64,000 bases of DNA. Origin: Nitrospirota bacterium. GTDB taxonomy: Bacteria > Nitrospirota > UBA9217. The number at the start of each line of letters is the position of its first letter. Positions within the stretch are counted from its first letter, which is position 1. The stretch spans positions 96,001-160,000 of the forward strand of contig CAVUCU010000004.1 in assembly GCA_963740085.1 (NCBI GenBank). The letters run 5' to 3'. The notes beneath the pieces are model-generated. The model was not told the origin of the DNA. It ran no database searches and saw only the letters and a program-made list of their open reading frames with translations. The position numbers and the translations under genes are program-made. Positions 7,705 to 13,944 of the stretch are shown piece after piece.

Positions 7705-7734
7705 ATTTGTCGTTGATCTATATCAATGACAAAT
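7705..7734. promoter_or_regulatory. FNR-type box inside an extended palindrome
   Basis: TTGAT-CTAT-ATCAA at 7713-7726 matches the consensus exactly, flanked by atttgtc/gacaaat; lies just downstream of the Crp/Fnr gene. Confidence 0.8.
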
Positions 7735-7783
7735 ATCCCTTCTTGTGATATTAGATTCAGTATAAAGCAGTATAAATATAAAC

Positions 7784-7870
7784 ATTCCCGACAACGCTAA
7801 ACCCTTCGCGAGAGGGGGACAGAAAGCTGCGGGTCTTGTACCAGCCAAGACGGCCGAGCTACCGAAGGAT
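7784..7870 (+). ncRNA. GEMM-I cyclic-dinucleotide riboswitch aptamer, A20 variant (probable 3',3'-cGAMP sensor)
   Basis: cgacaAcgctaaacccttc-gcga-gagggggacagaaagc..gggtcttg..caagacggccgagctaccg shows the GNRA-capped P2, AAAG junction and P3 of the c-di-GMP-I fold; A at 7794 is at the G20-equivalent position. Confidence 0.88.
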
Positions 7871-7904
7871 GAACCTGAGGTATGCTCGGCCGTCTTACTT
7901 ATTT
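7847..7904 (+). terminator. Riboswitch expression platform: intrinsic terminator mutually exclusive with the aptamer
   Basis: Perfect 13-bp inverted repeat aagacggccgagc (7847-7859) / gctcggccgtctt (7884-7896), followed by acttattt. Confidence 0.8.
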
Positions 7905-8193
7905 CCGGAAGCAGCAGTGCTTCTAAGCCCGTAGAATGCCAGGTAAAAAGGACTTAAGCTTCCACGTGAAACGATTGTGAAAAGTAGGCGTAAGTTGACC
8001 AGGAAATAACAGGGAGGGGCCTTTCTTATTCCGTTCGGCATCAAATCTTCAATTCCCAATAAGCCGAAAAACTGGATAATAAAGCTCTCAGCGGGTGGAT
8101 TGGGTAGAGAGCAATACGAAACCCGAAAAATCATTGGTTGAGTTCACGTAAATCATGCGAACAACGTAAAACCAATTAAAGGAGGGAACAGAC

Positions 8194-10466: not shown

Positions 10467-10611
10467 TGCGTATCAGACAGGTGGCATATCAGCAGCCGCA
10501 GCGTAACGGGGGACTGTCCCGGAGTGCTCTGTCGCAGCAGCACCGCATGATTCCATCACACTGCGGCTTAGTAAGTATGGTTCTATGGATACTTCTGCTA
10601 AGGAGCGTATT

Positions 10612-12117
10612 ATGAAAACGCGAGAGCTCTCATTAATTGCCGCCTTAGTGGTCGTGTATCTGATGGGGGGAGTCGTGGCATATGGTGGCATTGGTCCGGT
10701 ATTGGACAAGATTTCTCCTTCCCTTGCCTATGATATTCAGAATAACCGATATCTCGCCGTGTATGAAAAAGACGTTTACATTAACGGGCAGCTCATTGAT
10801 GCAAATGGAACGCCATCCTCCGCTGAATTCGCTATTTCTGATCCTGCAATAAACCAACGCGGTTCCTCGGTGGCCTATGATGGGGTAAATGACAGGTTCA
10901 TCGTGGTGTGGGCGCGTTACGGCGCAGGTATCTACGGCCAACTCGTTAACGCAACAGGCGGTCTGATCGGCGGCAATTTTATCATAAGCGGTTATCAGAA
11001 CGTGGACAGGCCATCAGTTGCTTATGACAGTATCAATCGGACTTTTCTCGTTGTATGGGAAGACCCGCGCAACTCGACTGGATCCAATACGGACATTTAC
11101 GGTCAGATCGTGAACTCTGATGGAAGTCTTATTGGTGGCAACATAGCCGTCTCAACCGCCGTGAATCACCAATTCCATCCCTCAACAACCTATGACAGTG
11201 TTAATCAGAGATTCTTCGTGGTATGGATGGACAGCCGAATTACTGACTACGACCTCTACGGTCAGCTTGTGGACTATGGGGGAGCCCTGATCGGCTCTAA
11301 TTTTGTCGTCTCTGCCGCTCATGGCATTATGACGGATCCTGTTGTTGTTTATGATGTCACTCATCAGAAGTATCTCGTCGCATGGTCTGACGATCGAGAT
11401 CTTGCATCCACGGGATACAATATTTATGGTCAAATAGTCAACGCAGACGGTATCGTGAGCAGCGATAGCTTCACGATCTCGAACGCCGAGGGCGATCAAT
11501 CTTCCCCTGCGGTGGCTTTCGATGCCGCAACCAATACGTTCATGGTGGCATGGCAGGATGATCGAATGGCTGGTAGTTCGGGATCTGACATATACGGGCA
11601 ATTTGTGGATTCGGGCGGAGGATTGGTTGGAACGAATTTCTCGGTAAACAGCGCAGCCGGAAATCAACGTTATCCTATGGTTGCCTATAATTCTATTGCG
11701 AAAAATTTCATGGTCGCCTCTGAAAACCGGAGCGTTGCACCGGCTGATCTTTCTTTTGATCTTGTCGGCAGCGCAGCCTTGAATAATACCGCTCTAGACG
11801 AAGGGGGTGGAGGAGGGGGAGGCTGCTTCATCGCAACCGCAGCATACGGCAGTTCAATGGCCGAGGAGGTAAGGGTTCTTCGGGAGTTCAGGGATAATTA
11901 TCTCCTTACCAATGCGGTGGGCCGAGCATTCGTAAAGCTCTATTACCAATACTCACCTGCACCAGCGGAGTATATTGCCCGCCATGAGTTGCTCAGGACA
12001 GCCACAAGGTTAGCTCTAACGCCCGTCGTGTTCGGCGTCAGGCAACCTGTAGCTGTACTGCTTGTAATCACGGGTATCACTATCGTGTTTGTGAAAAGAT
12101 CGAGGATAGCTCGATAG
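10612..12117 (+). CDS. Exported repeat protein with a C-terminal CFI-box-CTERM-type sorting domain
   Basis: About 6 repeats of [45 protein letters not shown], then a TM segment and basic tail. Confidence 0.85.
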
Positions 12118-12132
12118 ATAAGGAGGATCGTC

Positions 12133-13944
12133 ATGAAAAGGGGAAGGCTGTTACTTATCACTGTTCTTCTGTCGTTTTTTACGGCGGTGTCGCTGGTTAA
12201 CTGCGGTGGAGGTGGCGGAGGAGGTGGTGGAGGTACTCCACCACCTCCCGTATCCAGTAATGCTAACCTTGCATCGCTCACTGCTTCTCATGGATTAGTG
12301 AACCCGTCTTTTGATCCCGCAACGACGGTATATGCCTCCATGTTCATTGGGCAGACGTCGATCACTATTACGCCTACAGCGGCGGATGCAGGTGCAACGA
12401 TCACGGTCAATGGGGCAGCCGTGGCATCGGGACATCAGTCTCAAGCCATTTCACTGAATCCCGGTCAGAACACGGTAACCGTTGCTGTGACTGCGGCAGA
12501 CGGGGTGACGACGAAGAACTATACGATCACCGCGAATTTGCTGTCGCAGGAAGCATACGCCAAGGCATCCAATACCGATGCACCTGATCTGTTTGGCTGG
12601 AGCGTAGCCCTATCGGGAGATACTCTCGCGGTAGGTGCAGTTTGGGAGGCGAGCAACGCTACAGGGATTGACGGTGATCAGTCTGACAATACTGAATGGC
12701 AGACCGGAGCGGTGTATGTTTTTATCCGTAGCGGATCGACGTGGACCCAGCAGGCATATATCAAGGCGTCTAACAGCGGTGGATTAGACTGGTTTGGATA
12801 CAGCATGTCCCTGGAGGGTGATACTCTCGCCGTAGGGTCTCCTTGGGAGGGCAGCAGCAACGGCAACCAGGGAGACAATAGTGCATCCGGGAGCGGGGCG
12901 GTGTATGTGTTCACCCGAAATGGTACGACCTGGACCCAGCAGGCGTATATCAAGGCATCGAACATCGATGCCGACGATAATTTCGGCTATAGCGTATCTC
13001 TCTCGGGAGACACGCTTGCCGTAGGCGCGCCTGAAGAAGACAGCAATGCTAAAGGTGTCAACGGCGACGAGAACGATAATAGTGCACCCGTGAGCGGCGC
13101 GGTGTATGTGTTCACCCGCACCGGTACGACATGGAACCAGCAGTCATATATCAAAGCATCGAATACTGATGCATATGACTGGTTTGGCTACAGCGTATCC
13201 CTCTCGGGTAATACGCTTGCTGTCGGGGCGCCTGAAGAAGCAAGCAATGCCCAAGGTATAAACGGCGACCAGGCGGATAATAGTGCAATTTATAGCGGGG
13301 CTGCATATGTGTTCATCCGGACCGGAGCGACTTGGACCCAGCAGGCGTACATCAAGGCATCGAACAGCATGGAAGGCGCCTGGTTTGGCCGGAGTCTATC
13401 TCTCTCGGGTGACACACTCGCCGTAGCGGCGCCTGATGAAAGCGGCGGTTCCACGGGGATCAATGGCGATCAGACGGTTAACGGCGCAACATCTATGAGC
13501 GGGGCGGTATATGTATTCACCCGGACCGGGGTGACCTGGACCCAGCAGGCCTATATCAAGGCATCGAATACTGGTCAAACCGATACGTTTGGCATAAGTG
13601 TGTGCCTTTCGGGTGACAGCCTCGCTGTCGGTGCTCCTAATGAAGCCAGTGTCGCAAAAGGGATCGGTGGTGATCAGGCAGATAACAGCGGGGTCGGGGC
13701 GGGAGCTGCTTATTTGTTCACCCGGACCGGCACGACCTGGACCCAGCAGGCGTATATCAAGGCATCGAACACCGATGCACGTGATACCTTTGGATTTAGT
13801 GTTGCCCTTTCAGGTGACACGCTTGCTGTTGGAGCACCTGACGAAGGCAGCAATGCTAAAGGAATCAACGGCGACCAGACGGACAACAGCGCTTTCATTA
13901 GCGGTACTGGCCAAGGGGCTGGAGCGGCATACATTTTGCGCTAG
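12133..13944 (+). CDS. Lipoprotein with cadherin-like beta-sandwich and FG-GAP/integrin-alpha repeats
   Basis: Lipobox LVN-C plus poly-Gly; VTAADGVTTKNYTI; repeated AYIKASNT..FG.SVSLSGDTLAVGAP..GAVYVF. Confidence 0.9.
   Translation: MKRGRLLLITVLLSFFTAVSLVNCGGGGGGGGGGTPPPPVSSNANLASLTASHGLVNPSFDPATTVYASMFIGQTSITITPTAADAGATITVNGAAVASGHQSQAISLNPGQNTVTVAVTAADGVTTKNYTITANLLSQEAYAKASNTDAPDLFGWSVALSGDTLAVGAVWEASNATGIDGDQSDNTEWQTGAVYVFIRSGSTWTQQAYIKASNSGGLDWFGYSMSLEGDTLAVGSPWEGSSNGNQGDNSASGSGAVYVFTRNGTTWTQQAYIKASNIDADDNFGYSVSLSGDTLAVGAPEEDSNAKGVNGDENDNSAPVSGAVYVFTRTGTTWNQQSYIKASNTDAYDWFGYSVSLSGNTLAVGAPEEASNAQGINGDQADNSAIYSGAAYVFIRTGATWTQQAYIKASNSMEGAWFGRSLSLSGDTLAVAAPDESGGSTGINGDQTVNGATSMSGAVYVFTRTGVTWTQQAYIKASNTGQTDTFGISVCLSGDSLAVGAPNEASVAKGIGGDQADNSGVGAGAAYLFTRTGTTWTQQAYIKASNTDARDTFGFSVALSGDTLAVGAPDEGSNAKGINGDQTDNSAFISGTGQGAGAAYILR

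Follow-up and report, generated by a model that had tools for sequence, protein, structure and literature searches.

A c-di-GMP-I riboswitch as the probable kinetic ON-switch of a four-gene exported-surface-protein operon in a Nitrospirota bacterium

The DNA analyzed here is a stretch of 64,000 nucleotides (nt) from a Nitrospirota bacterium (GCA_963740085.1, contig CAVUCU010000004.1, positions 96,001 to 160,000), which we call the window, and the subject of this report is a GEMM-I-type riboswitch aptamer lying in front of four genes for exported proteins. A preliminary description, made from the sequence alone, had read this aptamer as a sensor of 3',3'-cGAMP (cyclic GMP-AMP with 3',3' linkages) rather than of cyclic di-GMP (c-di-GMP). 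When the window was scanned with all 4227 Rfam families at their gathering thresholds, two RNAs were returned: one tRNA, identified by ARAGORN as tRNA-Leu(CAG), and one aptamer of the GEMM-I clan (CL00126) at 7787-7867 on the forward strand. The aptamer matched family RF03167 over the whole of model positions 1-80 with 67.5 bits (E 8.2e-14), against a gathering score of 59 that places it within the c-di-GMP-I (GEMM-I) clan; a second, lower-scoring match from the same clan over the same aptamer was suppressed by Rfam. The GEMM-I aptamer proposed earlier at 7784-7870 was thus borne out, its wider limits adding just three possible outer pairs of helix P1. The Infernal check that had been suggested confirmed the clan, but gave RF03167 as the best model and a G, not an A, at position 20. 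The elements of the riboswitch are as follows, with pocket positions numbered as in the Vibrio cholerae aptamer Vc2.

7787-7867, forward strand: GEMM-I (c-di-GMP-I clan) aptamer, from Rfam and covariation
7787-7790 with 7863-7867, forward strand: helix P1, from the Infernal alignment
7797-7822, forward strand: helix P2, from the Infernal alignment
7825-7860, forward strand: helix P3, from the Infernal alignment
G7796, forward strand: equivalent of G20, the base recognizing ligand G-alpha, from the Infernal alignment (consensus G 5' of a 2-bp helix)
A7823, forward strand: equivalent of A47, which we take to be the adenine that intercalates between the ligand guanines, from the Infernal alignment
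C7862, forward strand: equivalent of C92, the Watson-Crick partner of ligand G-beta, from the alignment; paired with G7880 in the terminator fold of the minimum free energy (MFE) structures
7847-7896, forward strand: predicted intrinsic-terminator hairpin of 13 + 4 pairs, competing with the aptamer for the 3' strands of P3 and P1 and for C92
7897-7906, forward strand: terminator tail ACTTATTTCC, an interrupted U-tract, from the sequence

The window aptamer retains each of the 21 modeled base pairs and each of the three pocket bases. Covariation was examined over six homologues: 96% of the cells were paired, and 8 pairs were changed on both sides. The resulting score was reached by none of 500 shuffles, and slid registers paired at 27-48%; fitting the alignment to the model biases these figures toward the structure. 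The aptamer is a genuine cyclic-dinucleotide GEMM-I element.

The ligand of such an element is read from its pocket. The available excerpts of PMC6140456 state that ligand G-alpha is paired through its Hoogsteen edge to G20 of Vc2, that C92 forms a Watson-Crick pair with G-beta, and that cGAMP riboswitches have an adenine in place of G20 (A14 of Gs1761); contact of A47 with the ligand is described in the accessible part of PMC5888326. In the window, G7796 lies directly 5' of a two-base-pair helix (C7797-G7822 and U7798-A7821) that comes ahead of the AAACC of the consensus, A7823 is the next base after this helix, and C7862 is placed immediately 5' of the P1 3' strand. The helix was 100% paired across the aligned cells, with CG/GC and CG/UA covariation; its sequence is CU/AG in the window and, among the loci compared below, CC/GG in L008 and L065, GU/AC in L016, and GC/GC in L059, L077 and L027. 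Positions 20 and 47 lie 27 nt apart in the window (G7796 and A7823), as they do in Vc2 (20/47) and Gs1761 (14/41), for which the distance was computed from the numbering in passages of PMC6140456 and PMC5888326. In a three-way alignment G7796 falls in one column with the G of L008 and the A of L065. Over all seven aptamers the position-20 column holds G in five (window, L008, L016, L059 and L077) and A in two (L065 and L027), and the A47 column is A in all seven.

The preliminary description had placed an A at the G20 equivalent. The base in question is A7794, which stands two bases 5' of G7796 just as A12 precedes A14 in Gs1761, whose A11 and A12 contact the ligand backbone (PMC5888326, in excerpt). 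We rejected A7794 as position 20: C7795-G7796 cannot pair with A7821-G7822, and the distance to A47 would be 29 nt, not 27. The earlier call therefore reflects a two-base register error, in which the conserved upstream adenine was mistaken for position 20; the true A20 examples, L065 and L027, align their adenine to G7796, so that the adenine defining the GEMM-Ib group is absent from the window. This kind of slip makes an ordinary c-di-GMP riboswitch look like the cGAMP type, and it matters for annotation.

The A20 call had been the sole basis of the cGAMP assignment, which fell with it. Because G7796, A7823 and C7862 form the canonical triad, the ligand is expected to be c-di-GMP rather than cGAMP, and the window aptamer most likely senses c-di-GMP. 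A GEMM-Ib aptamer selective for 3',3'-cGAMP, with cGAMP switching the operon on, would agree with two observations: L065, which is of the A20 type, has a homologous scaffold and expression platform (scored at 68.8 bits by the model made from just the window aptamer; mean column identity over aptamer and terminator of 75% among window, L008 and L065), and GEMM-Ib riboswitches of Geobacter work as terminator ON-switches in the available parts of PMC6456294 and PMC9262584. However, the defining column holds G7796, and A7794 matches the phosphate-contacting A12 of Gs1761, not A14 (PMC5888326, in excerpt). Vc2, which carries G20, binds c-di-GMP with a picomolar dissociation constant and cGAMP with one of 10 uM, according to the accessible text of PMC6140456. 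No Hypr or other GGDEF protein is encoded within the 64-kb window, a weak argument that concerns the window only. We consider cGAMP an extremely improbable ligand.

A different doubt about the pocket arises from the family label. Of the Rfam models, RF03167 (c-di-GMP-I-GGC) scores best on the window and also on L008 and L065, each time above 59. We take "GGC" to denote the bases at positions 20, 47 and 92, which fits the printed consensus, and the family has been proposed as a possible altered-specificity variant. Compared with RF01051, the printed RF03167 consensus has P1 modeled as paired, a short P3, and G instead of A at the A47 site, which is model position 37. The window shares with RF03167 the top score (67.5 vs 59 bits), the paired P1 and the short P3, whereas at the conserved G of the model the window, L008 and L065 have A. 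Since all three RF03167 matches (7787-7867; L008, 411-485; L065, 1547-1631) carry this A, one of them (L065) together with A20, the match reflects the scaffold, with its paired P1 and short P3, and not a variant pocket. Filing the window aptamer as c-di-GMP-I-GGC was rejected on account of A7823; the label would mislabel the element, and in this scaffold it does not mark a variant pocket. One may still suppose that this short-P3, receptor-less scaffold has an altered or broadened specificity, for another dinucleotide or for c-di-GMP and cGAMP together, a supposition with which the top-scoring model and the natural G/A variation at position 20 within the clade agree. The adenine in all three matches, a score driven by the scaffold, and three canonical pocket bases speak against it, and we judge it very unlikely.

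The 3' half of the aptamer also takes part in a second structure. Two 13-nt segments, 7847-7859 and 7884-7896, are 100% complementary, the 5' one lies within the loop-closing part and 3' strand of P3, and the hairpin they form is extended by four pairs (7860-7863 with 7879-7882). The perfect 13-bp stem between the P3 3' strand and 7884-7896 in the preliminary description is therefore exact, and the coordinates stated there, those of the 3' arm, were right. With 13 + 4 pairs and -35.7 kcal/mol, the stem would suit an intrinsic terminator and is stronger than those of the relatives. The MFE structure of the region 7780-7912 is the terminator hairpin (-55.3 kcal/mol, z -5.07, none of 200 shuffles as stable). 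The energies were -35.7 kcal/mol for the terminator hairpin alone, -20.7 kcal/mol for the aptamer secondary structure and -53.8 kcal/mol for the full-length MFE fold. Once the transcript has reached 7883, its MFE fold includes P2 and P3, and at this stage a small hairpin (7861-7863/7879-7881) competes with P1.

The terminator uses the 3' strands of both P3 and P1 as well as C7862, so that it cannot form together with the aptamer. The ligand must then capture P1 and C7862 before the terminator zips, which would make the device a kinetic ON-switch. Read-through upon ligand binding, as proposed earlier, is in keeping with the occupation of the P3 3' strand by the terminator; the direction of switching is itself predicted from the fold, as is its size. 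Taken with the pocket, these results make it quite probable that the element is a c-di-GMP-I riboswitch acting as a kinetic, transcription-terminating ON-switch of the four-gene exported-surface-protein operon that follows it.

The features downstream of the terminator are these.

7907-8193, forward strand: leader of about 290 nt from the terminator to the first start codon, from the sequence
8194-8664, forward strand: gene 1, a 156-residue lipoprotein with the lipobox ...MVSC followed by GGGGGG, from the open reading frame (ORF) and its N-terminus
8808-10466, forward strand: gene 2, a 552-residue exported Kelch-repeat (beta-propeller) protein (Pfam Kelch_1, 4.1e-42, four stretches)
10585-12117, forward strand: gene 3, a 510-residue exported protein with repeats and CFI-box-CTERM (NF041770)
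12133-13944, forward strand: gene 4, a 603-residue probable lipoprotein (...LVNC, then poly-Gly), from Pfam and its N-terminus
14004-14032, forward strand: operon-end terminator with 13 pairs, 7 of them G-C, a loop of 3 and the tail TTTTTATGATG
14035-15126, reverse strand: rlmN, convergent on the operon (RlmN TIGR00048, 1.2e-109)

The four forward-strand ORFs all have signal-peptide-like or lipobox-like N-termini, as had been noted before, and they are separated by gaps of 143, 118 and 15 nt; they are presumably co-transcribed. The operon end given earlier as 14005 corresponds to a strong terminator at 14004-14032, whose tail has five T followed by ATGATG and which is the sole strong terminator-like site on this strand.

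The gene 1 protein gave no Pfam or NCBIfam match and has 18 homologues, mostly metagenomic. Its AlphaFold model (mean predicted local distance difference test score 77.3) is an eight-stranded all-beta domain for which the fold search against the PDB returned no match at E <= 0.001, and the Atlas leads were weak and lipocalin-like (0.82-0.85). The top row of the fold search, the Cap15 cyclic-dinucleotide receptor barrel, was rejected as a generic likeness among eight-stranded barrels (template-modeling scores 0.32/0.44, root-mean-square deviation 10.5). The N-terminus of the gene 2 protein resembles a signal peptide. In the gene 3 protein a unit of about 50-56 residues (PSVAYD...FLVVW...IYGQ) recurs six to seven times, from which a propeller fold can be predicted; Atlas leads were weak and BNR-like (0.86-0.87), and the PDB sequence search gave nothing significant (one match, E 0.48). 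Its residues 414-482 form a C-terminal CFI-box-CTERM anchor domain (NCBIfam NF041770, 106.6 bits, cut-off 40), with a hydrophobic stretch and then a basic tail after the CFI-box motif, and its best named relative, from a Nitrospirota metagenome-assembled genome (MAG), is 81% identical. The gene 4 protein has FG-GAP_2 (1.7e-76 in 7 stretches) and Cadherin-like (2e-18) domains. The surface-protein target of the preliminary description therefore stands as far as exported, beta-propeller-rich proteins are concerned; control by cGAMP drops out, and an adhesive role would be a conjecture from the domains.

Poly-Gly tracts occur in all four operon proteins and in the protein encoded at 915-3209 downstream of the L008 aptamer. 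They follow the lipobox cysteine (CGGGGGG...) in gene 1, gene 4 and the L008 protein, follow the signal peptide in gene 2, and lie immediately N-terminal of the CFI box in gene 3. The lipoprotein-processing genes lspA (4333-4836) and lgt (4988-5809) come after ileS, a few kb upstream of this lipoprotein-rich operon; the proximity is probably conserved housekeeping synteny. The best named relatives of the IleRS protein belong to Nitrospirae or Nitrospirota MAGs (89%, 83% and 80% identity), in agreement with the host being a Nitrospirota bacterium; one relative at 79% carries the label Betaproteobacteria.

Two further features lie on the upstream side of the aptamer.

6829-7629, forward strand: Crp/Fnr-family regulator gene, likely start ATG 6922 (Pfam cNMP_binding 4e-15, HTH_Crp_2 1.1e-14)
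7705-7734, no strand assigned: palindrome ATTTGTCGTTGAT-CTAT-ATCAATGACAAAT, with 13-nt arms that are 92% complementary

The palindrome has a 13-4-13 layout and lies 76 nt past the stop codon of the regulator gene and 53 nt ahead of the aptamer. Its core at 7713-7726 agrees exactly with TTGAT-N4-ATCAA, the FNR/CRP-type consensus. No other exact match to TTGATNNNNATCAA occurs in the 64 kb; with at most one mismatch there were 4 matches, against 2.39 +/- 1.51 expected. The regulator has both of its domains and such a site nearby, and the palindrome is likely a candidate operator of the adjacent regulator or an activator site of the operon promoter. The translation of the regulator gene contains no cysteine before residue 184, and hence no N-terminal FNR-type cysteine cluster. 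Dual input to the operon, from the regulator and from the riboswitch, is a reasonable proposal on these grounds. A permissive Rfam scan of 7630-8250 found the aptamer only, plus chance-level mir-549 matches (E 0.26 and 2) over the palindrome; a second RNA element in the leader was rejected, the mir-549 matches being the palindrome at 7705-7734 itself. Comparison of the window and L008 leaders gave no convincing conserved block.

Several observations weigh against a c-di-GMP-responsive ON-switch. The tail ACUUAUUU is interrupted, with five U in eight, whereas the relatives have six to seven consecutive ones, and a general terminator scan, which considered loops of 3-8 nt, listed no site at 7847-7896; we attribute this miss to the loop limit, which excludes that hairpin. 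The leader of about 290 nt contains a promoter-like site (8053-8080) that could give riboswitch-independent expression. The top Rfam model is the GGC variant RF03167 and not RF01051, whose score is masked by clan competition. No GGDEF synthase was found among 61 of the 62 ORFs of at least 80 residues in the 64-kb window, the omitted ORF being one that overlaps the tRNA-Leu. Finally, conservation of the arrangement rests on distant loci, the closest proteins (94%, 89% and 81% identical) lying outside the locus comparison.

The interrupted tail, together with the leader and its promoter-like site and the exact FNR/CRP-type palindrome, would also fit a real aptamer that does not control the genes, either because it is decayed or leaky or because the Crp/Fnr-type site or an internal promoter dominates. 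We regard such a loss of control as very unlikely: no modeled pair among the 21 and no pocket base among the three is lost, the terminator has a perfect stem that exceeds those of its relatives in strength, and the number of promoter-like sites equals that expected by chance (7 found vs 7.9 +/- 2.5).

A response-regulator HD-GYP phosphodiesterase-like gene (44149-45222, reverse strand) is divergent from a PilB/GspE-type ATPase gene (45447-47210, forward strand) whose MshEN domain, of the c-di-GMP-binding type related to MshE, scored 72 bits against a cut-off of 38. These two genes suggest c-di-GMP turnover and a c-di-GMP receptor in this organism.

For the c-di-GMP-sensing ON-switch, we propose the following course of events. 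Transcription would probably start in the stretch that separates the aptamer from the Crp/Fnr-type palindrome (7705-7734), and P2 and P3 would fold as the RNA emerges. One guanine of c-di-GMP would be bound by G7796 in a Hoogsteen pair and the other by C7862 in a Watson-Crick pair, with A7823 stacked between them, so that P1 and P3 are locked. Without ligand, 7860-7863 would pair with 7879-7882 and zip via 7847-7859/7884-7896 into the 17-bp terminator, and transcription would halt near 7900. With ligand, polymerase would read through into the genes of the lipoprotein, the Kelch protein, the CFI-box-CTERM repeat protein and the cadherin-like/FG-GAP lipoprotein.

The proposed mechanism has close parallels among known systems. 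In the available portions of PMC9262584 and PMC6456294, the Geobacter pilM, pgcA and Gs1761 riboswitches have, like the window, mutually exclusive aptamer and terminator structures in which the terminator takes the 3' strand and the ligand-pairing C; the pilM cGAMP riboswitch is an ON-switch of the same logic, and sequestering its ligand-pairing C abolishes binding (PMC9262584, in excerpt). The targets of the Geobacter GEMM-Ib riboswitches also include surface-exposed proteins. There the selectivity base is A and the outputs are cytochromes and pili, whereas in the window the base is G and the outputs are Kelch, FG-GAP and CFI-box proteins, in a Nitrospirota host. Cd1 of Clostridioides difficile is likewise a c-di-GMP-sensing GEMM-I aptamer that acts on termination, but the accessible text of PMC9262584 describes it as an OFF-switch whose aptamer and terminator coexist; in the window the two exclude each other, and the switch would be ON. 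With Vc2 the window has in common the three-helix architecture, the G20/A47/C92 triad and the 27-nt spacing from G20 to A47; it differs in its short P3, which lacks the CUAA...UAUG inner segment of RF01051, in a platform that is a predicted intrinsic terminator, and in host, genes and leader. The L008 element resembles the window in its G20, in a near-identical linker and terminator (GAAGGAU.A..CCU..GGUAUGCUCGGC) and in a downstream lipoprotein with a Cys-poly-Gly N-terminus; its leader is about 430 nt, its downstream protein is Gly-rich, has 764 residues and gave no blastp match to the four proteins of the window, and its U-tract is uninterrupted.

A search of one literature library found no paper on GEMM or c-di-GMP riboswitches in Nitrospirota. 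The earlier claim of an undescribed lineage and regulon holds to that extent, although the class is known and no new signaling system is involved; the locus extends a known riboswitch class to a further host, in a phylum that has been little studied, and to a further regulon. If the reading is right, it is a clean and testable case in which, within an uncultured member of the Nitrospirota, c-di-GMP would switch on exported proteins of the Kelch, FG-GAP, cadherin-like and CFI-box-CTERM kinds.

The homologous riboswitches used above came from a search based on the operon proteins. A profile of gene 3 orthologues matched at least 612 stretches of genome contigs, 604 of which were confirmed, and the best 80 of these at least 612 stretches were kept, corresponding to 79 loci. 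The profile matched on CFI-box motifs; none of the matches listed is a close orthologue, and over the full length they reach at most 39% identity. A corresponding profile of gene 1 relatives matched 22 stretches, none of which was confirmed, so the contigs searched apparently include neither the genome of the window nor those of near kin. The window and the 79 loci (844,338 bases) were scanned with two covariance models, one built from the window aptamer alone and the second from six matches; Rfam was run on 7 of the 79 loci, and the other 72 were scanned with our own models. GEMM-I aptamers were present within the flanks of six loci, and Rfam confirmed all six. A seventh candidate, L028 (14.6 bits, E 0.29), was rejected because it had no Rfam match and was gone with the six-sequence model. 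The nearest homologue is L008, from a Nitrospiraceae MAG, with 71 bits under the window-only model and G at position 20; L065 comes from a Desulfuromonadales MAG. The six aptamers are placed as follows.

L016: aptamer (G20) directly before a CFI-box-CTERM gene encoding a 612-residue FN3/PKD protein
L065, 1547-1631: aptamer (A20) directly before a CFI-box-CTERM gene encoding a 1539-residue DUF7948/SBBP/choice-of-anchor-U protein
L027, 4308-4431: aptamer (A20), in a "Deltaproteobacteria" MAG, before ATG 4484 of a CFI-box ORF ending at 6309
L008, 411-485: aptamer (G20) just past one CFI-box gene and before the gene of the 764-residue lipoprotein
L077: aptamer (G20) before an NHL-repeat protein gene
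L059: aptamer (G20) with no connection to the CFI-box gene in this locus

The expression platforms were compared for L008, L065, L027 and L016. A terminator that captures P3 is present in three of these four: L008 has the arms GCCGAGC/GCTCGGC and then six T, L065 has GCCGAAC/GTTCGGC, which differs by a compensatory G-to-A/C-to-T change, again with six T behind it, and L027 has GCCGCCAAA/TTTGGCGGC followed by seven T. In L016 the hairpin is separate. By their A20, L065 and L027 are GEMM-Ib (cGAMP) candidates, each with a P3-capturing terminator. In L008 two N at 443-444 fall in the P3 loop, which is not comparable with that of the window.

In three of the six riboswitch loci the aptamer lies immediately 5' of a CFI-box-CTERM gene. 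A riboswitch is found in a minority of the loci (6 of 79), yet the pattern recurs across phyla with G or A at position 20. One tentative explanation, which we think possible but on balance would not favor, is that a single clade, alike in aptamer and terminator design, swapped its second messenger across phyla (G20 in Nitrospirota, A20 in Desulfuromonadales and "Deltaproteobacteria") and retained as output large, exported proteins with repeats and the uncharacterized CFI-box-CTERM anchor. If so, surface display of CFI-box-CTERM proteins would be a conserved, undescribed output of cyclic-dinucleotide "surface lifestyle" signaling, and in the window this output would be gated jointly with a Crp/Fnr-family regulator. 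The same literature library has no paper using the term "CFI-box-CTERM", and GEMM-I ON-switches before such genes offer a small, concrete way into the function and regulation of this sorting domain.

Two other regions of the window may be mentioned. At 31738-34898 a transketolase-like gene is directly followed by a gene for a 384-residue RuBisCO large-chain-like product (PF00016, 8.2e-33), possibly not a carboxylase but a RuBisCO-like protein. The region 51447-57073, with genes for a NikR-type regulator, two MetA-pathway-like outer-membrane proteins and a CbiM/PDGLE/CbiQ/ABC-ATPase transporter cluster, looks like a nickel or cobalt uptake locus.

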